This document shows positions 6,180 to 45,388 of a DNA stretch of 64,000 nucleotides, piece by piece; positions within the stretch are counted from its first letter, which is position 1; the number at the start of each line of letters is the position of its first letter. This DNA is from an uncultured Gammaproteobacteria bacterium. GTDB taxonomy: Bacteria > Patescibacteriota > Patescibacteriia > Magasanikbacterales > GWA2-37-8. The DNA lies in assembly GCA_964444705.1 (NCBI GenBank), contig CAYUHX010000002.1, positions 22,869-86,868 of the forward strand, given 5' to 3'. The translations under genes and the position numbers were made by a program. The notes under the pieces are model-generated. The model did no database searches. It had not been told where the DNA came from and saw only the letters and a list, made by a program, of their open reading frames with translations.

Positions 6180-6349
6180 TACCGCGTCGTATGGTTTGAT
6201 ATGAATAGTTGATGGTTCTTTAAAATACTTAAAAGTGTGTGGTGAAGCGAAGAAAGCGCTTGCCCCAGCTGACAAAGGCAGAAATAGTTTGTGTCTTGTT
6301 TAGCTGGAGGCAAAGGCCTCGCAAGCGTTTTCAACCCTGGAGGATCGTC

Positions 6350-6865
6350 ATGAAGCGCAACACGTGTCTGTTCCCCGGTTTCTTCGCCATTGCGGCCGCC
6401 ATCGGCTGCGGCAGTGCCCCTCCTACCGACCAGAACTTCAGCATCCCGGCGCCGGCGGAGTGCGACCAGCGGCAGCTCGAGGTGCGGGGTGACCGCAAGG
6501 TGACTAAGATCGAGTTCCCCGTGCCGAACGCAGGCTCGTACTACGTCGTGCAGAACGGCTACTCCGTCCGGTCCCCCTTCCCGGACGGGTACTACCCCGG
6601 CGTGGATGTGGTCAAGGACAGCTGCGGCAAGCCGGCCGTGAGCATCGACACTAGCGGCGCCTCGGTCTGGGCGAACCCGGGGCAGAAGGTGGGCGCCTGC
6701 CCCAAGGGCGGCGCCCAGCCGAACGGTGGGGCCCAGTGCTACAACTTCGAGGTCGGGCAGGGTGGCGTCATCACGCCGTACCTGGCGCCGCCCACGGACG
6801 AGCAGATCCAGGCGGAGCAGGCGATGGTCGCGGAGATCGCGGCCGAGCAGGCCGCCCAGGAGTAG
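6350..6865 (+). CDS. GC-rich secreted lipoprotein, hypothetical (likely horizontally acquired)
   Basis: MKRNTCLFPGFFAIAAAIGCGS has signal peptide plus lipobox. About 65% GC in an about 40% GC context. GGAGGA SD 7 nt upstream. The track start at 6239 is judged upstream read-through. Confidence 0.55.
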   Translation: MKRNTCLFPGFFAIAAAIGCGSAPPTDQNFSIPAPAECDQRQLEVRGDRKVTKIEFPVPNAGSYYVVQNGYSVRSPFPDGYYPGVDVVKDSCGKPAVSIDTSGASVWANPGQKVGACPKGGAQPNGGAQCYNFEVGQGGVITPYLAPPTDEQIQAEQAMVAEIAAEQAAQE

Positions 6866-17899: not shown

Positions 17900-19129
17900 C
17901 TAGAACTCGGCGGCCGTGCGGCCGATTCCTCGGCAAAGGGGGTCGCGCTGGTCGGTGAATTCATTTATGTTCACCGCCGGGTCCCCGATTTGCGCCCTGA
18001 ACGCGGCCTCGTCGATCAGCAGGTCGCGCGAGCTACACGGTGATACCTTCACCGAGTTGGCATAAGGGTTGTCACCATGGTCCAGAAACAACCCTTCGGT
18101 GGGGAAGCTGATGAGTTCGTGTTCGCACACCCAGATGGGCTGGGTGGGGATGTTGATGCTCTTCAGCAGAGCCACCATAAAGCCCACACTTCCGTGACAG
18201 CCCGCGGTCCAGTGTTGGACCCCTGCGTCTGGATTGTTGGTATCAATAGTACCTTCAATGATTGCGCCCAGCGGTGCGAATCCTGCATACCCCCATACTG
18301 CTAGATGGTTGGTGTATGAGGATGGCCCATAGTAATGCGTCATCATGTGCCGCATCCAATCAATCAGGTTCACAATTGTGCTTAGGCGATTTTCACCGAC
18401 TATTCCCTGGCTCGCAAGCCAGTTGTACAGCGCTCGTGGGGGCGCGTAGGGTGTTTGTGCGCGGTTATCTTTTGTGAAATAAGGTGTGCCTATTTCACTC
18501 GTCCCAACCGTGTAGACTACGGGAGAATATTCGAGCCGCCACCCAATGGCCGCGCTGTCAAACAGTTCTCGGAGTTGTTCGTCGTTGTACCCGGTGATGC
18601 TCCACCCAAGGGTAGTGGAGGTCTCGAGCGCGAGCGAGAAGCCCACTTGGGCAACATAAAGTCGCCACATGTAGGTTTCTTCGAACTCCTTCGCAACTTT
18701 GCAGTTTGGGCAACGATCGCCGTTATTATTGTTCGACGGCCTATCGGTCAGACCATCGGCGATGAAGCCTACAGGCGTTGCTCCACCCCGTAGCCAGTCG
18801 TAGGCGGTTTTGTAGGCGGTTTCGAGGTCCGCCTTTTGGACAGTCGACCATTTGGTGTAGTTTTGTTTTTCGCTATCTGTCGGCGGTGTGTAGGCGTTAA
18901 GAGACGCCTGAGCGTGCTGCCACTTGATGGCCGTTGCCACCTGGGGGTGGTTGGCTAACCACTGCGCCGCGGTTGGTGGTTTGCTTGGAATGATTACTAC
19001 CGGTGGGTCATCCGTGGGTCGTTCGCCCATGTCTGCGACCGATGGTGGCCGCTCTTGATTTGTGGGGCTTGGCCCGCAAGCGGTGGTGCAGAAAAGCCAG
19101 AAAAGAATCAGACCAACGAGACGTTGCAT
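17900..19129 (-). CDS. GC-rich secreted lipoprotein, hypothetical (likely horizontally acquired)
   Basis: MQRLVGLILFWLFCTTACG signal/lipobox. About 60% GC. No recognisable catalytic motif. Confidence 0.5.
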   Translation of the reverse strand: MQRLVGLILFWLFCTTACGPSPTNQERPPSVADMGERPTDDPPVVIIPSKPPTAAQWLANHPQVATAIKWQHAQASLNAYTPPTDSEKQNYTKWSTVQKADLETAYKTAYDWLRGGATPVGFIADGLTDRPSNNNNGDRCPNCKVAKEFEETYMWRLYVAQVGFSLALETSTTLGWSITGYNDEQLRELFDSAAIGWRLEYSPVVYTVGTSEIGTPYFTKDNRAQTPYAPPRALYNWLASQGIVGENRLSTIVNLIDWMRHMMTHYYGPSSYTNHLAVWGYAGFAPLGAIIEGTIDTNNPDAGVQHWTAGCHGSVGFMVALLKSINIPTQPIWVCEHELISFPTEGLFLDHGDNPYANSVKVSPCSSRDLLIDEAAFRAQIGDPAVNINEFTDQRDPLCRGIGRTAAEF

Positions 19130-19345
19130 GGTTTTGATCTCCAAATTTCGGGCTCATGGCCCGGGTAGGGGTGATTTGGGGTGAAGTAATAATGCACCGG
19201 CATCTTAATTGTAAGATAATAATGGTGCGTTATCACGGATAAAAAGAGCCAAGATTTGACACTAGCACAAAAATGAAAAATGTCAAGTCTAAGAAGGTGT
19301 TTTTTATCTTAATTAAGCAAAATAGTGCGTATTTAAAAAAATAAA

Positions 19346-36933: not shown

Positions 36934-37311
36934 TTAAGCTTGGGTATTGAGGTAGGCCTTCAACGCATCTTCAAGTCGACTTGTTTGTGGTGAAAAAAGA
37001 CGTATCCCGTTAACTGTAGTCGTTGGTCCTTCCGCGTGTACTTTTTCGTCCATACTTGGCCAGCTGGCGTTATCTTTAATTTGTTTTAATAGATCGGCTG
37101 CGACACTACCATTTAACTCAGGAAGAGGTATGCCCAGATTATCTATGACTGTTTTTAATTTTTCGATTGGATCAAGTGGGGCGAAATCACCGGTTTGAGA
37201 CATTCTTTCGCTCATAGAGTTTAAATTAGAGTAATTAATAGTTAAATTATAGCTTACTTTAGGGAATTTGTGAATATGTGTGTTACATGACAGAAAACAA
37301 AAACCGCCCAC
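36934..37311 (-). CDS. hypothetical protein
   Basis: 125-aa ORF. An internal Met at MSERMSQ may be the true start. No recognisable motif. Confidence 0.35.
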   Translation of the reverse strand: MGGFCFLSCNTHIHKFPKVSYNLTINYSNLNSMSERMSQTGDFAPLDPIEKLKTVIDNLGIPLPELNGSVAADLLKQIKDNASWPSMDEKVHAEGPTTTVNGIRLFSPQTSRLEDALKAYLNTQA

Positions 37312-37402
37312 GTCTCCTGCGCCGAGCGGCGAGAAATCTCGTCGCCACGCGTAGGGGTGTGGGCGGGGTTTGTGCGTGCGGCAACTTGGTGGGCAGCAGC
37401 CT

Positions 37403-38362
37403 CTATGGGGTTACCTCAAAGCGGTCTCGGGTGGTGGTGCCACGATCAAAGAATACTTCCTTGGCTGTAACCTCCACGTTGCCATTCGGCAAAAATTCAA
37501 CTAGCGCATAGCCGTTGAAGGGGTTTTCCCATCCTTCATGGAAGGCCGCACCGCCGTTGCCCACTATCACATCGCGGTAGTGTCCGCGGACGAGCGTATT
37601 CTTCACATGCTCATATTTGTGATCATGGCCGGCGAAGTACAGAGTGATGTTGTGCCGCTGCAGAATAGCTTTAATTTCCGCTTCGATCCACGGAGTGGTT
37701 CCGTGGGAGTCGAAGTACTGATGGCGGAGCACGAACGTGTATTCCGTGGGGATGGCCATCACGGTTTTGAGCCACTTGGCCTGAAGACGATCTTTGTCGC
37801 CCTTCCAGACGTCCGTGGCGATCGAGACGAATTTCGCCCGTCGGCCCTGTTCGTCCTCGATGAGGAACCACCAGTAGTATGGCGCCTCCTCGCCAAGCAT
37901 CCGCATTACCTGGAGACAGGGGAATTCGTGATTGCCGAGCGTGGTATGGATGGGGGCCTTGAGGTGGGCGCGGGCGGCGAGAAGGATGTTGACCTGGGCG
38001 GCGATGGTGTCGGCCGGGCATCCTCGATCAACGTACACTTGGTCGCCGGTGTCCCCAACAACCACCGCCTCATCCTCGTCGATGGCCTTGAAAATCGCTT
38101 CCACGACCTTTGCTGGATAGGAATTGATTTCATTTTTTTTTGGCGGCCGATGATCGCCCGTGATGGCGAACCGCGTCCTTGCTAGCCGTTTGACCTTGAT
38201 GGTCGGCTTTTGATGGAGGGGTGCCATCCCCAGGATGGCCGAGGCAGTGTGGGGCACGATGTCAGTGGCCAGCTGGGTCGCCGTTTCCTGGTTGCAGGCC
38301 GTGAGGCAGCTGAGGATGACGATGATTCCGAAAATTTTCACGTTGCCACTGTTCATACGCAT
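37403..38362 (-). CDS. secreted (lipoprotein) calcineurin-like metallophosphoesterase, GC-rich
   Basis: Signal/lipobox ILSCLTAC. Metallophosphoesterase motifs GDTGDQ, GNHEF and AGHDHKYEH. About 60% GC. A strong terminator hairpin lies 3' of the gene on the minus strand (37304..37365 + TTTTTGTTTTC). Confidence 0.65.
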   Translation of the reverse strand: MRMNSGNVKIFGIIVILSCLTACNQETATQLATDIVPHTASAILGMAPLHQKPTIKVKRLARTRFAITGDHRPPKKNEINSYPAKVVEAIFKAIDEDEAVVVGDTGDQVYVDRGCPADTIAAQVNILLAARAHLKAPIHTTLGNHEFPCLQVMRMLGEEAPYYWWFLIEDEQGRRAKFVSIATDVWKGDKDRLQAKWLKTVMAIPTEYTFVLRHQYFDSHGTTPWIEAEIKAILQRHNITLYFAGHDHKYEHVKNTLVRGHYRDVIVGNGGAAFHEGWENPFNGYALVEFLPNGNVEVTAKEVFFDRGTTTRDRFEVTP

Positions 38363-38550
38363 GGGCTACTCCTGTGCGAGTGGTTTTAAAGGGCGAATGT
38401 TCCCAACTGAGAGGAACAGATGACTCTATCAAATACAAGGCTGTTCAGCAAGTTTTAAATTTAAAAAACCAGATGCAGCCTTTCAACTCAAATTGCATTG
38501 AGACGAAGGGCTAGGGCATCTGGTTTTGTGGCGGAAAGATGTGCTGGACT

Positions 38551-39075
38551 TCAGTTGCAGCCGGCCGGAGTGCAACCACTCGGGCAGTCTTGGGTAGCTG
38601 CGGCGCAGTAGCCTTCGGGCAGGCACTTGCCCGTGGCGTACATCATCACGCCGCCGCCGCTGTAGTTGACGCACTTCTTCACCGTGCCGCTCAGCGAGCA
38701 GCAATCAAGATCGGATCGGCAGGCATTGCACCCTCCGATGACTGCAGTCTCTGGCGGTACGCACAGTTTGGTGCCGTCTTTTTGGGTGTGGCAGTTGGAC
38801 CATCTCCAGCAGCTGGTCACGAAGGGGCACAGCGCCCCTTCCGCCATTCCCTCGCACCGCCGAACCGTGTTCGGTTCGTACGGCCCGGTGCAGAGACCGC
38901 CAAGGTCGATGGTCGGTTGGGACGTCATCAGATCGGCCGGGCTGCCGCCGTCCATGATCGACATGAGGTCGTCGTTGGCAGGGGTGATTCTTGCCATCGA
39001 TCCGTCTGTCGACGGGTTGCAGGCGATGGTGAGAGCAGTCAGTGCTACATAAAGAGACAAACTCGGAGTGCGCAT
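38551..39075 (-). CDS. cysteine-rich secreted lipoprotein, hypothetical, GC-rich
   Basis: MRTPSLSLYVALTALTIAC signal/lipobox. About 20 Cys in about 150 mature residues (CNAC, DCCS, CPSGC). About 63% GC. Confidence 0.5.
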   Translation of the reverse strand: MRTPSLSLYVALTALTIACNPSTDGSMARITPANDDLMSIMDGGSPADLMTSQPTIDLGGLCTGPYEPNTVRRCEGMAEGALCPFVTSCWRWSNCHTQKDGTKLCVPPETAVIGGCNACRSDLDCCSLSGTVKKCVNYSGGGVMMYATGKCLPEGYCAAATQDCPSGCTPAGCN

Positions 39076-39255
39076 TGTGTTCCTTTCGTCGCGCGACGCC
39101 CCTATGGCGCCCGACCCTTTTTCTCGGGTCTAAAAAATGCCTCCCCACACGAGAGACATTGTTTGGATCAGAGATAAGAACGAACGCGTGAATTTAACCC
39201 AAGGAATATCATGAAATACTTAATTAGTCAATTAATATAGGGTGAATATTTCGAT

Positions 39256-40989
39256 TTATTTTTTTTCAGAATTACCACCGTGCGAGCCAGGTGTTCCTTC
39301 ATTGCCGCTTCTTCGGGTGGGAAAAGCCGCTCGTAATTTTGGAACTTCTTTTTTACGAGTAAGTTCGCCCGGAGCTTTTATTTCTCCGGTTTTAAAATAA
39401 TGAACGGCTCGGCCGCGACTTTCCTCATTAAAACCAGTATTAGTAGCATTGGGTTCTAAAAACAGCGCCTGTTTTTCGGGTGGTTCGGAGAAATAGGGTG
39501 CGAGCAGCTCCAGTACTCGTTCTACATTCACTGGTTCGCCGCCGTAATCTTCTAACCCCGCCAGCATTGCTTTGGCTTTTGTTTTAAATTCAGCAAAGCG
39601 TGCAGGTAAACTTCCTCGTACCTCGGCTGAGTCGGTAAAAATAATGGTGAGCGGTTTTCCGAGGCGATCAAGTTGTGAAATTTCTTTTGCCACTTCTTTA
39701 GGAGTAGTAAAAAAACTTTCATCAATTGCTACTAATCCTTTGGTAGAGCGTTCAATTTGCGTGCCCAAGCGTTCCGACCAGTTGGCCACGCCGCCGTCAA
39801 TCGACACATTCAGGCGAGCGAGCGCCAATACCGCGGGTGAAACTGTGGCGGCTGCTCCGGGTTTAGGTTCGGCGCGGGTAAGACGTTGTTGGTCGATTGC
39901 CATTTGCATGCCAAGTTGCTCGGAAAGCAAGGCGCACAGTTCAAGCATGGGGCCAGCCTTGGTGCTGCGGTATGATACAAAGAAAAAATCGAGACCGTTT
40001 TCTTTTAAACGATTGCGCAACTCTTCGCGTAGGCGGGCAACCTTGCCCAAAAATTTTTTGACCACGGCTTGATCGGGAATTGAACGGATATCTGCTGCCA
40101 ATTGTATAATTTCATCAGCCAGCTGTTTCCACGATCCTTTCATTTCGGCTGTGAGTTCTTTAAGAGCAGTCAAACCTTCAGTTGGAGAAAGTGTTTCAGT
40201 TGTAGTTGCGCCCGCTTTTGCTGCTTTCACTTCATCAAAAGTAAAATCATCATCATCATTGAGCACGCGGCCACGGCGAATAAATTCTTGGATAATAGTT
40301 TTTCCTTCTTGTGAGAAAGAGGTAGTGCCATCGGTGGTAATGCGACACGCATTAAGCTTTCTTAGTTTAAGCACTGCATCACTGCCTTGAGTTTTAGCCA
40401 ACTGAGAAAAATAGCCTTCTTTGCCCGGTTTATCGTTGAATTTAGCGAGCTCGGCTTGGGGCCCAAACCATACCATCATAATGGGTTTTTTAGCCGCCTG
40501 CAGGGCCTCCATTTTTTCAATCACCGAATTAAATTCAGCCGGGTTGGTAAAAAATTCAGGTGTAATAAATACGGCCGCATGTGAGCAGGAAGCAATGTCT
40601 GTCGTCGTGCCCACTGCTTCTGCCGAAGTGTGAAAACGATTGCCCAGTTTGGCTGCATTTTTTAATTCGGCATCAAGGCCAGCTTTGAGTTCATTAAAAC
40701 CAACGCGTGCAGACCCCTGTTCGTCGGCAAGGGCGACGCTCGTTTCGTCTAAAGACAGATATAGTCGCGTTGGTCGCCACACCTCTTTATTTTCTCCAAG
40801 GCATACTCTGAGAGCCTCACGTAGCTGTGCCAGGCCACGCAATCGTCTGCTTCTTTCACTGGAATCAAGAAGGGGTGGGGCGTCTTTTAATGCTTCACAT
40901 TTTTGCTGCAAAGCATCAAGTTTTCGATCAATGGCCTCGCGTTGCATTTGTTCGGCCGCCGCCGCACGAGAAGATTCAAAATCGGTCAT
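39256..40989 (-). CDS. protein with two tandem TIR-like domains, each preceded by a coiled-coil segment
   Basis: Internal repeat at aa about 75-180 and aa about 334-456. Unit B: DFFFVSYRS (TIR betaA-like DvFISY) ... GLVAIDESFFTTPKEVAKEI ... KPLTIIFTDSAEV (TIR betaD-like IPIFY.VDPS.V). Unit A: AVFITPEFFTNPAEF ... KPIMMVWFGPQAEL. Confidence 0.5.
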   Translation of the reverse strand: MTDFESSRAAAAEQMQREAIDRKLDALQQKCEALKDAPPLLDSSERSRRLRGLAQLREALRVCLGENKEVWRPTRLYLSLDETSVALADEQGSARVGFNELKAGLDAELKNAAKLGNRFHTSAEAVGTTTDIASCSHAAVFITPEFFTNPAEFNSVIEKMEALQAAKKPIMMVWFGPQAELAKFNDKPGKEGYFSQLAKTQGSDAVLKLRKLNACRITTDGTTSFSQEGKTIIQEFIRRGRVLNDDDDFTFDEVKAAKAGATTTETLSPTEGLTALKELTAEMKGSWKQLADEIIQLAADIRSIPDQAVVKKFLGKVARLREELRNRLKENGLDFFFVSYRSTKAGPMLELCALLSEQLGMQMAIDQQRLTRAEPKPGAAATVSPAVLALARLNVSIDGGVANWSERLGTQIERSTKGLVAIDESFFTTPKEVAKEISQLDRLGKPLTIIFTDSAEVRGSLPARFAEFKTKAKAMLAGLEDYGGEPVNVERVLELLAPYFSEPPEKQALFLEPNATNTGFNEESRGRAVHYFKTGEIKAPGELTRKKEVPKLRAAFPTRRSGNEGTPGSHGGNSEKK

Positions 40990-41224
40990 ACAGGTATAAA
41001 AAATAATTATGGTAGATAGTCAACTACCTTAATACAATCATTCTAAATAATCAATTTGAAAAAACAAAACCCCTATCATTATTGAGAAGGGGTTTCGGAG
41101 CATCAAGTGCTTCTTCAGCCTCTCGTTATTACTACAAAGCGTTTATAGAAATAACGAGTCTGGAGGTTGGAGAGGCGTCGCAGCTCGTCGGTCGTGGACG
41201 GCTGGCCGACCTGGGGCGCTGTCC

Positions 41225-42325
41225 TTAGAGGGCACCGACCCGACGCATAATCTCGATCGCCGCCTTGAGGAGCGCTTCTTCCGTCGCGTTCTGGCGGCGG
41301 TCGTCCAGCCCTTCCTCACCATAAGGACCATGATCCGTCTCGCTCTCAACGTACGCGCTCGCCGCAGGCGTGTGGTCTTCGGGCCAGACGCTGATACCTT
41401 CGAAGCGTTGGTCGCTCCCGAAATCAACCGCCCGGAGCATAAGGACGAGCTCCTCGGCACCGGTTTCCGTCGGGGTGTTATCCATCGCGATGTAGTCGGT
41501 GCTCATGCACCGAACAATCAACGCGGCCCGCTCCCACAGCGACGCAATCTTGGTTGCGGGCGTGTGCTCCGTCACCCGCTCGTAGCGCAGTGGCCTTCCG
41601 CTAAAGTGTGACAGCATCCTCTCGATCATGGTGAGATCGTCCATGGCGTGGTGGAAGAGTACAAGCGGGATCTTGCTCGCCGCGATCTCCGCATCCACCC
41701 GGGTCGCCTCCTTCGCGAGATTGATCTTGTCAGCTCGCACCCCGCCGCGAGTGAGGAGTTTGAAGCCACCGTCCGTTGCTTCCGTATTGATGTTGATACG
41801 ATGCGCATCGGCGTGGGTGGCTGCCAGGTCGGCGGAATCTTTAAGGTTACGTCCCTTGGCGATGCTGATGTAGAACCCCCGTGATGCCCGGGCCGCGACA
41901 TCGTCATATTCCGCTACCTCGTTTCCGAGAAGGAACATGAGACCGTCATTTCCCTCCACCAAGGGCGCTAAGGATGCTGCCCCCCAACACACGTTGGCGA
42001 AGATGCCGAGAACGCTGGGGAATTTTCGGACCAGTCGGGTGAGGTGCGCGGGGACGAGGATGAACGGTTCCCCATCCTCAGTCGTCAGGATGATTTCCGC
42101 TTCATTGCCGTGGCCGATGAAGTGGATGATGTGGGGGCTGAAATCCGTCAGAGCATCGGACAAGGCTTCGAGCGTGCCGTCCGCACAGAAGCGGAATTCA
42201 AACTCGTTCGTTCGTCCAGCCTTTTCAAGGGCGCTGATGATTCTTTCCATCTCCCCCTGGCCCACCTTGTTTGCAGTCTTTGGAATGGCCTCGAACACTA
42301 ATACGCGAATCGGCGGCATGTTCAC
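41225..42325 (-). CDS. CHAT/caspase-like (peptidase C14-fold) domain protein with C-terminal domain of unknown function
   Basis: HIIHFIGHGNE (CHAT HfaGHG motif, His72) and LGIFANVCWGAAS (catalytic Cys113) give the caspase His-Cys dyad spacing. C-terminal 200 aa unassigned. About 62% GC. Confidence 0.55.
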   Translation of the reverse strand: MNMPPIRVLVFEAIPKTANKVGQGEMERIISALEKAGRTNEFEFRFCADGTLEALSDALTDFSPHIIHFIGHGNEAEIILTTEDGEPFILVPAHLTRLVRKFPSVLGIFANVCWGAASLAPLVEGNDGLMFLLGNEVAEYDDVAARASRGFYISIAKGRNLKDSADLAATHADAHRININTEATDGGFKLLTRGGVRADKINLAKEATRVDAEIAASKIPLVLFHHAMDDLTMIERMLSHFSGRPLRYERVTEHTPATKIASLWERAALIVRCMSTDYIAMDNTPTETGAEELVLMLRAVDFGSDQRFEGISVWPEDHTPAASAYVESETDHGPYGEEGLDDRRQNATEEALLKAAIEIMRRVGAL

Positions 42326-42608
42326 CTCTCTGTTGGGATTTCAGAACTGCGGTCTTTGGCGTCCATTACCTGGAGCCTTCCGCAATAGCAACAGGGTTCT
42401 GTATAAACCCTGCTTTTATCGCGAAAGGTGTCAGGCTAGGTTTAGCCCAAGTTCACATTTTTATTTTTAAATTATGAATGAACGGTCGCAGATGTAATCC
42501 ATTCCACATGGCTCATTGATTTTTATGAGCAATCGGGAATGGAGGGGGCCGGCCGGGTGCAGAAGGCACCGGCAGCGAAGAGGCCCCACGTCCATGTGTT
42601 CTTTGTTC

Positions 42609-43652
42609 TTAGGCGGGCTGCGCAGCCGTCGGGGCCGGGCCGGCCCCGACCTGAGCCGTGGACTCGCTCTTGAACCAGGCGCCGGCGTTCGCGAGAAGCG
42701 CCTTCTCGACCAGTTCCACGAGCGCCTTGAGGTCGCTGCCCTCGTCCACCGAGATGGCGAGCGGCTCCAGCACGTTGAGGGTCTGGAGGCAGAGGGCGAG
42801 CCGAAGCTCGTCCTCCGGGCTCTGCCGCGCGGCCGAAGCGACGCCGACCAACCATCCGAGACCCGCGAGCGGCAGCACCGTCTCGAGCACCCCCAGCCCA
42901 CCGTTCAGCCACCAGACGCGGCTGGTGAGCATGGCCAGCTCCTCCTGCTTCTTGCGCAGGTAGGAGAGCTGGCCCTTGTCCACGTCCGTCAGCCTCTCGG
43001 TGACGTAGGTGGCCGGGGTCAGCAGCGCCGTTTTGAGGTTTTTCTCGATGTCAGCCATCTCATCAGAGCTGAGCTTGTCCAGCGCGCAGGTGGGGATGGC
43101 CGCTCCCACCTTGCCGATGAATTCCTCGCGGGTGAGGAGGCTGGCCCTGAACGTGAAGAGGAGGCTCTTGATCTGCTCGGACGCGACCCTGCACAGCTGG
43201 TGCACGCGTCCGTAGCGCGCCACCCCGCCCCGCAGCAGCCCCACCAGAGCAGCCAGTGCTGAAGCGCTGACCGCCGGGTGCCAGGCGTGCCAGGGGATGA
43301 GGTGGAAGCCGCAGGCCGCGATGAGCATGGTGAGAGGCAGGAGCACAATCGCTCGGCGTCGCCAACGCACGGGCTTCTCAAGCGGCGTCAGCCCCACCAC
43401 GAGGGTGAGAAGCAGGGCGCCGATGAGCGTCTCGTTGGGTAGCCAGTTCTTGGTCGCCAAGACGGCCGCCAGCACCACGATGGGCGCCAGCACCTTGACG
43501 AGGCGGTTGAGGCGCTGGGCCATGGCGTCAGCGCGACTCGCAGTCTTGCTGCACTCGCGCTGCTTGGTCGCCGCGTGCCGCAGCGCTTGGACATTGCCAG
43601 TTGTCGGGGTGTACGGTTTCGTCGCAGGAGTCGTCGGGTCGTCCATCTGCAC
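42609..43652 (-). CDS. multi-pass membrane protein (4 N-terminal TM + 1-2 C-terminal TM), hypothetical effector
   Basis: Hydrophobic helices LVKVLAPIVVLAAVLA, LIGALLLTLVVGL, AIVLLPLTMLIAACGF and WWLNGGLGVLETVLPLAGLGWLVGVASAA. About 65% GC. An AT-rich promoter region lies upstream. Confidence 0.45.
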   Translation of the reverse strand: MQMDDPTTPATKPYTPTTGNVQALRHAATKQRECSKTASRADAMAQRLNRLVKVLAPIVVLAAVLATKNWLPNETLIGALLLTLVVGLTPLEKPVRWRRRAIVLLPLTMLIAACGFHLIPWHAWHPAVSASALAALVGLLRGGVARYGRVHQLCRVASEQIKSLLFTFRASLLTREEFIGKVGAAIPTCALDKLSSDEMADIEKNLKTALLTPATYVTERLTDVDKGQLSYLRKKQEELAMLTSRVWWLNGGLGVLETVLPLAGLGWLVGVASAARQSPEDELRLALCLQTLNVLEPLAISVDEGSDLKALVELVEKALLANAGAWFKSESTAQVGAGPAPTAAQPA

Positions 43653-43870
43653 CTCTTTCAGGGGTGTGGGGTTACAGGAAAAACAAATCTCTAAATAACC
43701 ATCTTATAAAGAAACACATGGATTGTAATGAGCAAAATCAGTAGGAATCTGAAAATGATGTACTACCAAACCTTTTTCAAATTCTTAAGCTGAATTTTAA
43801 GTGAGAGAGAGTTTTTAGAGAAGAAAAATTAAGTGAATGAAGAAGAAAAAAATTGAAAATTTCTGGGGGG

Positions 43871-43916
43871 CCTGATCGCCGTCGTCTGCGCGTGGGGCAG
43901 GGCGACGGCGATCAGG
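43871..43916. terminator. 14-bp perfect inverted repeat hairpin (terminator between convergent or adjacent island genes)
   Basis: cctgatcgccgtcg-tctgcgcgtggggcaggg-cgacggcgatcagg. Confidence 0.45.
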
Positions 43917-43958
43917 TGGTCTTCTGTACGCGCACGGGGGTGAGATGAGGTAGCGGGC

Positions 43959-44441
43959 CTAGCCGCCGCGGATGCTACCGTCGCGGAGCTGATCGTCCTC
44001 GTCGCGCGAGGGGCGGCCGTTCAGTGGCTCGTCGATGCAGCGCAGGTGCTCGTCCCGGCAGCGGTGGCTGTTGTCCAGCTCGAGGAGCTTGCTCAGCTCG
44101 ATCGCCGGGAAGCTGGACGTCCAGCTCAGCCGCCAGCCGTTGCTGTGCCAGGCGGCGACCACCGCCTTCTCCACCTCGGGGTGGCTCATCAGCTCGATGA
44201 GCTGCTGCGCCTTGTCCCGGTGCAGGTCACCGCCGAGGCCGATGAACATCGACCCTCGGTCCTGGTCCTCCATCTGCATGAAGAAGGTGATGAGCGGGTT
44301 GGCCCGCCGCACCATCTCCTGCACCTCGTGGGCGGTCAGGGGCCGCGGCTTGGGCCGGTGCGCGTCGGGGATGCCGTCCCCGTTCGCGTCGGGGAAGGTG
44401 CTGCCCGGTGAAGTTGTTTCACGATCAGGGTTCCAAGGCAT
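43959..44441 (-). CDS. GC-rich hypothetical protein with DGDGIPD (thrombospondin type-3-like Ca-binding) motif
   Basis: Start chosen at MPWNPD with GGAGGA SD 6 nt upstream. The track ORF extends to 44543. About 65% GC. Confidence 0.4.
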   Translation of the reverse strand: MPWNPDRETTSPGSTFPDANGDGIPDAHRPKPRPLTAHEVQEMVRRANPLITFFMQMEDQDRGSMFIGLGGDLHRDKAQQLIELMSHPEVEKAVVAAWHSNGWRLSWTSSFPAIELSKLLELDNSHRCRDEHLRCIDEPLNGRPSRDEDDQLRDGSIRGG

Positions 44442-44779
44442 GGGTCGTCCTCCAACAGTGCATCGCCGTGGTTTCTCACAACACAAACGCTTGTGGGCGC
44501 TGTGTTCCCTATCGCCGGCGTGCGACAAGGGTAATAAACTCAAAAAAATGTAAGTTTAGTATCCTTGCCACATTTTCGGCGACACTGCGTACAAAAGAGT
44601 TATTTTTGGCTAATTTATCTGTAGTGGATAAAAAAGACACGAAAATAACTATTCATTATAGCATATTTTTACTCGTTTGTCAACGGAACCATGCGGACAA
44701 AATTTTTATATCCTGCACCATTGAATAGTTTAAAAATTATGCTATAGTGGCTAAGTATATACTTATTTTATCTTAATAT

Positions 44780-45388
44780 ATGCCCCGTGAACGAAGTTGG
44801 CCTCCGCAAGAAGGTGACGTAGACAAAAAGAAACCAAAAGAGAAGCCGGCTGAGCAACCTAAACCACCTCGAGAAAGAGCCAAGAAAAAAAATACTATAA
44901 ATGTGTACAGCGCGGATGGTCTGATTGAGGCGGCTGACCCTGGTGTAGCTACCTCAGCGGAGGAGGACGCATCCACATCTTCTGCCGCTGAAACTTCTCC
45001 AGACATTAAACTCACTCCTGAAACCGCGGAAGCGGGGCTTACAAGAGCGCTCGAATTAATACGTGCTGCACTAGAAAGATTATGTAAAGACTCGGGTAAT
45101 CGTGCCCGTTTAGAAACAAAGCTTCCCATTCCTTTAAGTAAAGGTATGGGGGAGTTACGCGGTCTTTTACTTGAGCTCACCCGTCTGTGGAAGGAAAAAA
45201 AATTAATGGAGCGATTGAATCAGGTGGCCCATCGCGGGCATATTGATTTGTGTGAACCAGATTTTGAATCTAGTTTTCCTAGCCTTGGGGCGCGATGGTT
45301 TGAAAAACCTGAAGAAGTAGACCCTGTGGATGCCATGAAAGAGGGGTCACCGGCGGGTGGGGCATCCGGCGGAAGATCGTGGGTATAA
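44780..45388 (+). CDS. hypothetical protein (Lys/Pro-rich N-terminus), uncertain
   Basis: 202-aa ORF overlapping the ileS start. An antisense ORF also exists. No recognisable motif. Confidence 0.3.
   Translation: MPRERSWPPQEGDVDKKKPKEKPAEQPKPPRERAKKKNTINVYSADGLIEAADPGVATSAEEDASTSSAAETSPDIKLTPETAEAGLTRALELIRAALERLCKDSGNRARLETKLPIPLSKGMGELRGLLLELTRLWKEKKLMERLNQVAHRGHIDLCEPDFESSFPSLGARWFEKPEEVDPVDAMKEGSPAGGASGGRSWV

Follow-up and report, generated by a model that had tools for sequence, protein, structure and literature searches.

The locus considered here lies in a 64,000-nucleotide stretch of a contig from a Candidatus Magasanikbacteria genome of the candidate phyla radiation (CPR; contig CAYUHX010000002.1; the whole stretch is called the window below), and raises the question of what role a multi-spanning membrane protein plays beside a caspase-like protease in an island of foreign DNA. 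The gene in question, here referred to as the target, occupies positions 42609..43646 of the minus strand and encodes a protein of 345 amino acids (aa). With a probability of roughly 50%, judged from sequence comparison and analogy, the protein serves as membrane effector in an anti-phage signalling cassette of a TIR-based, Thoeris-like kind. This reading is adopted because members of the target's family adjoin TIR_2 genes and because cassettes combining a TIR protein with a transmembrane (TM) effector have been validated elsewhere. Among the systems compared, Thoeris types VII and II would come nearest, type VII being the most similar in layout.

The first point to settle is whether the target is a gene at all. 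Several reading frames stay open over long distances in the GC-rich DNA of this region, and the public protein set of the 110,449-bp source contig contains an antisense open reading frame (ORF) of 133 aa (43297..43698, plus strand; P0011) but not the target protein, which was missing in an exact look-up of three plausible start versions; the set does hold the neighbouring CHAT, 577-aa, metallophosphatase, Cys-rich and 202-aa proteins. It is nevertheless scarcely credible that the target is a chance frame and the antisense ORF the real gene. The GC content at the first, second and third codon positions (GC1, GC2 and GC3) is 0.68/0.48/0.88 in the target frame, with the order GC3>GC1>GC2, whereas the pattern of the antisense ORF (0.47/0.63/0.80) is not typical of coding DNA. 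The target frame is preserved through several in-frame indels in full-length homologs of 90%, 38% and 35% identity. The ratio of nonsynonymous to synonymous substitution rates (dN/dS) in comparison with the related contig L001 is 0.44 for the whole gene and 0.23 across residues 241–330, which comprise a hydrophobic hairpin and the tail of the protein. The conservation data effectively refute the chance-frame alternative; the target ORF is a genuine, constrained gene which seems to have been mis-called in public data, and the antisense ORF is probably spurious. The uninterrupted minus-strand frame 42609–43652 described in the original prediction stands, but its start has to be moved from the GTG at 43652 to the ATG at 43646. 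A Shine-Dalgarno-like GAGGTG (43650..43655, minus strand) lies at the right distance, 4–9 nt 5' of this ATG, and the closest homolog, P0001, has its first methionine at the same place; ATG 43646 is therefore almost certainly the true start.

The family to which the target belongs is extremely rare. Word-indexed searches of 5.8 billion clusters, with single sequences and with profiles, and full HMMER searches of 1.84 billion representatives yielded four clusters at 90% identity and one fragment among about 15 billion proteins: P0001 (90% identity to the target; from a Logan run), P0002 (38%; ENA), P0004 with P0009 and P0010 (35%; JGI and Logan) and the fragment P0003. Neither pattern scans of contigs from genomes, metagenomes and viruses nor tblastn searches against plasmids revealed further members. 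The family is unannotated, falls under every family threshold and has been overlooked by public gene calling. Its conserved core consists of a basic helix-TM-TM-basic helix unit, a linker, a W/G/P hairpin and a C-terminal block of the form EDExRxxLxLxTLxVLE ... NxGAWFK. The two branches differ at the N-terminus, where the window protein and P0001 share an insertion of about 55 aa containing an extra TM pair, while P0002 and P0004 lack this insertion and instead carry an additional N-terminal TM segment.

It is in the divergent branch that the link to TIR signalling becomes apparent. On all five contigs of this branch (L002, L003, L087, L088 and L089), a gene starts 48–51 bp 3' of the target homolog. 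This downstream gene belongs to TIR_2 on four of the five; on L089 the contig breaks off within it. The L002 protein matches Pfam TIR_2 with E = 3e-12 and has ThsB as its best PADLOC match (E = 8.5e-6), the L003 protein is 72% identical to it, and the genes on L087 and L088 are TIR_2 by record annotation. Full-length copies measure 306–307 aa, of which about 160 aa lie C-terminal of the TIR domain in L002 and L087. Residue E88, within the motif DWVLAEIE, is invariant across the TIR proteins of this branch and three Streptomyces TIRs, and by analogy would occupy the position expected of the catalytic glutamate. The genes 5' of the cassettes are ordinary (YtxH, BrkB) and L088 stops 306 bp past the TIR gene, so that the unit looks like a two-gene cassette. 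The TIR link claimed in the original prediction is therefore conserved in the divergent branch, whereas the window's own TIR neighbour, discussed below, is a weak one. A metagenome scan with the TIR alignment returned nothing, and the TIR matches found on plasmids, all from Streptomyces, had no SLATT or TM neighbour. As a separate observation, the TM and TIR cassettes of L002 (positions 1–332) and L087 (1–1917) are GC-rich (0.57–0.63) and the upstream DNA in L002 is AT-rich (0.32), which suggests GC-rich cargo in low-GC hosts, the same pattern as in the window.

A two-gene arrangement of this kind has been validated experimentally in Thoeris type VII, where the TIR protein ThsB is paired with the SLATT effector ThsH and signals through canonical cyclic ADP-ribose (cADPR; bioRxiv 10.64898/2025.12.03.692087). 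In the tested type VII systems the gene identifiers of effector and TIR protein are consecutive, and AlphaFold 3 predicts TM filaments with basic pockets between the protomers (bioRxiv 10.64898/2025.12.03.692087). The cassettes of L002, L003, L087 and L088 resemble this layout in that the membrane gene directly precedes the TIR gene. The target family is likewise predicted to be all-helical and membrane-embedded with basic cytoplasmic helices, and SLATT_1 is its top sub-threshold match. On the other hand, the family is about twice as long as a single SLATT domain (122 positions in Pfam SLATT_1) and does not reach the thresholds of the SLATT models; it has either the extra N-terminal TM segment (P0002, P0004) or the inserted TM pair (window) and a conserved C-terminal block found nowhere else, and the gene adjacent to the target in the window encodes a CHAT protease and not a TIR protein.

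The anatomy of the target protein fits a membrane effector in its general outline. Four N-terminal hydrophobic segments reach Kyte-Doolittle peaks of 2.01, 1.57, 2.28 and 1.65 in a 19-residue window, and a fifth stretch, in the hairpin region, peaks at 1.74. The numbers of lysine and arginine residues in successive loops (7, 0, 5, 0 and 16) agree with four TM helices, cytoplasmic N- and C-termini and the positive-inside rule. Hydropathy and loop charges thus uphold the four N-terminal TM helices originally described. The region between them and the hairpin is shorter than the 130 aa or so once estimated, at about 102 aa, and the tail, put at about 70 aa, measures 72 aa; both regions would be cytoplasmic. 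An AlphaFold 2 model built from an alignment of four sequences shows helices throughout, although its three-dimensional arrangement is unreliable (mean predicted local distance difference test score, pLDDT, 47). Together these predictions describe an all-helical inner-membrane protein with both termini in the cytoplasm. The absence of an enzymatic motif, already remarked upon in the original prediction, is borne out by the lack of any enzyme family match in Pfam, NCBIfam, PADLOC, PHROGs and the PDB sequences.

Within this framework, TM1 (residues 47–67; 43446..43508, minus strand, as for all elements of the target) is conserved across the family and aligns with a TM segment of P0002 and P0004. 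It is followed by the lineage-specific insertion (43281..43445), which comprises TM2 (residues 73–89), a predicted cytoplasmic loop with the sequence KPVRWRRR and TM3 (residues 100–118) and corresponds to a gap in the P0002 and P0004 alignments. TM4 (residues 125–141; 43224..43274) is again conserved, as judged by hydropathy, alignment and loop charges, and is followed by a conserved basic helix with the pattern R..R....CR.A.E.I.S....R.. The Gly/Pro-rich hairpin (residues 244–273; 42828..42917) contains the glycine-rich stretch WWLNGGLGVLETVLPLAGLGWLVGVASAA (residues 245–273), and the family alignment shows W245, W246, N248, L251, G252, T256, L258, P259, L260, G264 and W265 to be invariant. 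The element is highly conserved and its sequence agrees with what had been described as a glycine-rich TM hairpin, but its passage through the membrane is called into question, since it is weakly hydrophobic, carries a conserved mid-helix charge in its first arm (E255 in the window branch, lysine in the other) and has a second arm of just 9–10 residues. It may span the membrane, re-enter it or line a pore. Conservation within the family is highest in residues 276–326 (42669..42821), a block predicted to be helical and cytoplasmic: its first part, EDExRxxLxLxTLxVLE, forms a strongly conserved acidic amphipathic helix, and a second helix ends in NxGAWFK. Invariant alignment columns, the helices of the AlphaFold 2 model and the low dN/dS value given above define this block.

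The two halves of the protein appear to have had different histories. When window positions 42612–43646 are compared with positions 118–1143 of L001, which derives from a different sample, codons 1–190 show 98.4% nucleotide identity and a synonymous divergence (dS) of 0.02, while codons 191–345 show 79.2% identity and a dS of 0.48. This step points to a recombination breakpoint at approximately codon 190 (43076..43077), where the N-terminal TM module gives way to the linker and C-terminal module.

In the window, the gene that follows the target encodes a protein of 364 aa (41225..42319, minus strand) whose N-terminal domain is a caspase-like CHAT protease. It matches the PDB sequence 8tl0_A with E = 1e-6, the catalytic motifs HFIGHG and N(V/A)C being aligned, and Pfam CHAT at a sub-threshold 17.7 bits (E = 0.0025); the CHAT neighbour named in the original prediction is thereby confirmed. 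A further domain of about 170 aa follows at the C-terminus. On L001, a homologous gene starts at the same place after the target homolog (MSIRVLVVTAIPQG vs MPPIRVLVFEAIPKT), and the order of target and CHAT-like gene is thus kept in the window and on L001. The spacer between the two genes (42320–42608) shows features of its own: it is 88.5% identical to L001, above the adjacent coding half (79%), and includes both a stem-loop, CAGGGTT-N7-AACCCTG, and a site weakly resembling a promoter (42498–42471); it may be a regulatory element.

Next in the same direction lies a gene for an orphan protein of 577 aa (39256..40989, minus strand) with two copies of a coiled coil followed by an alpha/beta domain. 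Among the 5.8 billion clusters it matched itself alone. There is weak similarity between its two halves (E = 0.005), the second half matches Pfam TIR_2 with E = 0.052, and the protein contains a strand-like FFFVSYRS motif. A Foldseek search with a single-sequence model (pLDDT 42) returned mostly TIR structures as top matches (SNC1, Roq1, RPPT and RPP1; E = 0.06–0.7). A hidden Markov model (HMM) built from five TIR sequences gave no signal above reversed controls with any of the island proteins, the 577-aa protein included, and BLASTP comparison of the L002 TIR protein with the 577-aa and CHAT proteins of the window found nothing. On balance the 577-aa protein is somewhat more probably a TIR protein than something else. 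The statement that the target sits immediately upstream of CHAT and TIR genes consequently stands for the CHAT gene, across a 283-bp gap, and is weakly supported for the TIR gene.

The presence of a caspase-like protease recalls Thoeris type IV, in which a TIR protein acts with the caspase-like protease ThsE, the presumed N7-cADPR-binding part of which is its C-terminal domain (10.1101/2024.10.24.620036; Rousset et al., 2025). The CHAT protein of the window, with a His/Cys caspase-family domain and an uncharacterised C-terminal domain, may be likened to ThsE by layout. Type IV has two genes and no membrane protein, in contrast to the window, where a membrane gene is present and the candidate TIR partner is putative. 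In Thoeris type II, the TIR protein produces His-ADPR and the effector ThsA, which combines TM helices with a Macro domain, oligomerises and destabilises the inner membrane (PMC13434031). The target is proposed to resemble it in that a TIR signal would activate a TM effector, but the target family is without a Macro or other recognised ligand-binding domain. Various TM effectors occur in Thoeris types V, VI and X, and many further TM proteins adjoin TIR genes (PMC13434031; bioRxiv 10.64898/2025.12.03.692087). Outside Thoeris, the Hailong effector HalA is a DNA-gated tetrameric ion channel which depolarises the cell (PMC13434031). Like HalA, the target is proposed to be a membrane effector under the control of a nucleotide-type ligand; unlike it, the target family has no match among PDB sequences, and the partner of HalA is a nucleotidyltransferase and not a TIR protein.

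By analogy with these systems, the TIR partner would sense infection and convert NAD+ into an ADP-ribose-derived signal. This signal, or the activated partner itself, would act on those cytoplasmic parts of the target protein that are rich in Arg and aromatic residues; the conserved helices of this kind are only candidates for the signal-binding parts. The membrane protein would then oligomerise and breach or depolarise the membrane, so that the infection is aborted. That the protein senses a signal, oligomerises, damages the membrane and co-operates with its window neighbours is inferred from the comparisons above, and the killing function ascribed to the protein is conjecture throughout. In the window lineage, the place immediately downstream would have been taken by the CHAT protease with its extra C-terminal domain, and the role of the TIR enzyme would pass to the orphan 577-aa protein, giving an island with two alternative executioners. 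The arrangement suggests that this lineage swapped its adjacent TIR gene for a type IV-like caspase-like protease, resulting in a composite, perhaps dual-effector island.

How far the target may be called a SLATT protein bears directly on this proposal. The SLATT clan, as described by Burroughs and colleagues in 2015, reportedly comprises predicted pore-forming effectors with two TM helices. The target family was compared with the Pfam models SLATT_1 (PF18181), SLATT_3 (PF18184) and DUF4231 (PF14015) and the NCBIfam models NF033634 and NF033610. It shares with the clan a predicted helix-TM-TM-helix arrangement, cytoplasmic termini, neighbours that are nucleotide-signal enzymes and the lack of an enzymatic domain, and SLATT_1, DUF4231 and SLATT_3 are its recurrent top matches, at scores of 14–23 bits compared with cut-offs of 24.7–45. 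The window protein scores 13.7 bits with Pfam DUF4231 (E = 0.088; cut-off 24.7) and E = 0.0075 with NCBIfam SLATT_1. P0001 matches SLATT_1 over the full model (positions 1–122 of 122; E = 0.0074), P0004 has the best Pfam score of the family (SLATT_1, 21.1 bits, E = 3.3e-4; cut-off 26.3) and P0002 the best NCBIfam score (SLATT_1, 23.2 bits, E = 5e-5, in two matched stretches; cut-off 41). In P0002 and P0004 the N-terminal unit reads basic helix-TM-short loop-TM-basic helix, whereas in the window protein the inserted TM pair splits this unit; in-silico removal of the TM2–TM3 insertion raises the DUF4231 score of the window protein from 13.7 to 19.7 bits (positions 8–88 of 103). Matches of Pfam SLATT_1 to the C-terminal module have E-values of 3.3e-4 to 1.3e-3 in P0004 and P0002, and the hairpin lies within the region of the SLATT_1 matches in P0001, P0002 and P0004. 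These matches were examined with reversed sequences, which retain both the composition and the symmetric helix-TM-TM-helix layout. Reversed C-terminal modules gave no SLATT match, and the forward C-terminal modules of P0002 and P0004 score 16–21 bits over the first 45–58 positions of SLATT_1; direction-specific similarity is confined to this module. A tandem arrangement of two SLATT domains was also considered and rejected, as hhalign comparison of the N- and C-terminal modules revealed no internal duplication and reversed controls behaved alike.

Several observations weigh against the membrane-effector reading. No SLATT model is reached at its curated cut-off. The reversed N-terminal modules score 13.7–16.1 bits with SLATT_1, DUF4231 and SLATT_3, and the forward modules 17.7–19.7 bits; because the two score almost alike, the N-terminal similarity to SLATT is largely one of architecture and composition. 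The C-terminal module of the window protein itself has no SLATT match in Pfam or NCBIfam. The family has no PADLOC or PHROG match, no known ligand-binding domain (Macro, SLOG, SAVED or CARF) is detectable with Pfam, NCBIfam and PADLOC, and the fold search with the pLDDT-47 model returned nothing useful. Of the SLATT analogy drawn in the original prediction, the architecture and, in the other branch, the TIR-adjacent context hold, while the family cut-offs are missed and the N-terminal similarity, as it survives reversal, does not argue for homology. The family is accordingly best described as SLATT-like in architecture and context, and homology of the C-terminal module to SLATT is plausible. 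A tentative and somewhat unlikely alternative is that the family is not SLATT at all and represents an unrecognised membrane-effector fold of a new Thoeris type, which in the window lineage would have been joined by recombination to a caspase-like protease and to an orphan sensor of double-TIR-like build, forming a dual-executioner CPR island.

The lack of a recognisable signal-binding domain in the target also speaks for a different division of labour, in which the protein would act upstream as a membrane sensor, for instance of phage DNA injection or envelope stress, as an anchor or scaffold for the TIR or CHAT protein (a role that the original prediction had considered alongside killing), or as an inhibitor until infection occurs. 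The extra domains of the partners (about 160 aa behind the TIR domain of L002 and L087, about 170 aa behind the CHAT domain of the window) could themselves be effectors or sensors, TIR NADases and caspase-like proteases can kill alone, as in type IV Thoeris, and the hydrophobicity of the hairpin is too weak for an obvious pore element. Such a regulatory role is nonetheless unlikely: in characterised TIR systems with a TM partner (Thoeris types II, V, VI, VII and X), sensing falls to the TIR protein and the effector role to the TM protein, and the weak SLATT-like similarity favours an effector family.

To the points that count against a membrane effector belong those concerning gene neighbourhood. 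The TIR-adjacent cases all come from one sub-branch with two levels of divergence, and the TIR identity of the 577-aa protein rests on three weak cues. In the window, the target is separated from the CHAT gene by 283 bp and the CHAT gene from the 577-aa gene by 235 bp of AT-rich DNA, with a stem-loop between, and does not form a tight operon with them; the GC3 of the 577-aa gene is 0.39 and thus host-like, compared with 0.88 for the target and 0.72 for the CHAT gene. Long gaps and discordant codon usage weaken the case for functional coupling inside the window. The same features are compatible with a membrane protein of unrelated function that is part of the cargo of the island and lies near the CHAT and 577-aa genes incidentally, particularly as the island also contains unrelated genes for exported products (a lipoprotein of the metallophosphatase type and a secreted, Cys-rich protein) and guilt-by-association cannot be put to a statistical test in so small a family. 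This explanation is decidedly unlikely in view of the immune-type neighbour found on every informative contig (in the divergent branch TIR_2 on four contigs out of five, the fifth being cut; CHAT-like on L001 and in the window) and the spacing of about 50 bp in the TIR cassettes. Nor was a transporter or other housekeeping family matched: Pfam and NCBIfam gave only scattered sub-threshold hits to NuoN, YwiC and Sm_multidrug_ex (E = 0.02 or worse), and nothing emerged from the PDB sequence and fold searches with the target family. Homology to a housekeeping transporter, which had been named as the finding that would speak against an effector, was thus not found. A membrane effector in a TIR-based cassette therefore stays the favoured reading.

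The target and its neighbours lie in an island of about 8.4 kb (36934..45378) between rpiB and ileS, delimited by comparison with related Magasanikbacteria and by the GC profile. In these relatives trxR-rpe-rpiB abuts ileS, and none of the 80 related loci contains any of the island genes. The isoleucyl-tRNA synthetase (IleRS) of the window, on which the assignment to Candidatus Magasanikbacteria is based, has at best 69% identity to its counterparts in metagenome-assembled genomes of this group. The island is foreign and was acquired horizontally. It is also a mosaic, with GC3 values of 0.88 for the target, 0.85 for a 194-aa ORF, 0.75 for the Cys-rich protein, 0.72 for the CHAT gene and 0.71 for the metallophosphatase, compared with 0.45 for the host ileS, and with AT-rich intergenic DNA. 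The 194-aa ORF (43959..44543, minus strand), which has no homologs, shares the strand of the target, precedes it and is followed by a terminator-like element, a perfect 14-bp inverted repeat with a T-rich tract (43871..43916, minus strand). The target, once placed at the head of the island, thus heads its own unit and not the island. Ahead of the 194-aa ORF lies a perfect extended sigma-70-type promoter, TTGACA-17-TG-TATAAT (44683–44655, minus strand); consensus promoters of such quality are notable in a CPR genome.

At the distal end of the island (37403–39075, minus strand), a calcineurin-like metallophosphatase (Pfam Metallophos, E = 2.7e-12) with a lipobox-like LSCLTAC signal is encoded, as is the Cys-rich secreted protein, which has 174 aa and no homologs. 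SLATT genes have been found alongside genes for TIR, calcineurin-type phosphoesterase and caspase effectors by Aravind's group (PMC7159879); the presence of a phosphoesterase beside TIR, caspase and SLATT-type genes resembles these effector sets, although here the enzyme is apparently exported. At the junction of the island with ileS, a Lys/Glu/Pro-rich ORF of 202 aa (44780–45388, plus strand; host-like GC3 of 0.38), publicly called as P0012, overlaps the ileS start by 10 nt; a homolog ahead of ileS occurs in none of the 80 related loci. Elsewhere in the window, two further GC-rich islets (6239–6865, plus strand, and 17900–19144, minus strand; GC 0.55–0.60, compared with 0.44 in the background) code for putative secreted proteins or lipoproteins with signal peptides ending in AAIGC and TTAC. 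It seems that this low-GC CPR genome has GC-rich genes for exported proteins at scattered sites.

That a TIR protein may act with a TM effector is already known; what is unusual is to find the target family paired, in a CPR genome, with a CHAT protease. In bacterial immunity, TIR-based signalling that draws on exchangeable effectors is a rapidly expanding subject, and the target family would contribute an effector that gene callers have missed and present domain libraries fail to detect. The family would illustrate modular evolution, with an inserted TM pair, a breakpoint between the two halves of the protein and a swap of partners between TIR and caspase-like proteins, and the locus would be a case of foreign DNA forming a defence island within the Patescibacteria (CPR). 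If it is true that the membrane effector and the protease effector answer a single TIR signal, the island would represent a two-effector Thoeris system.

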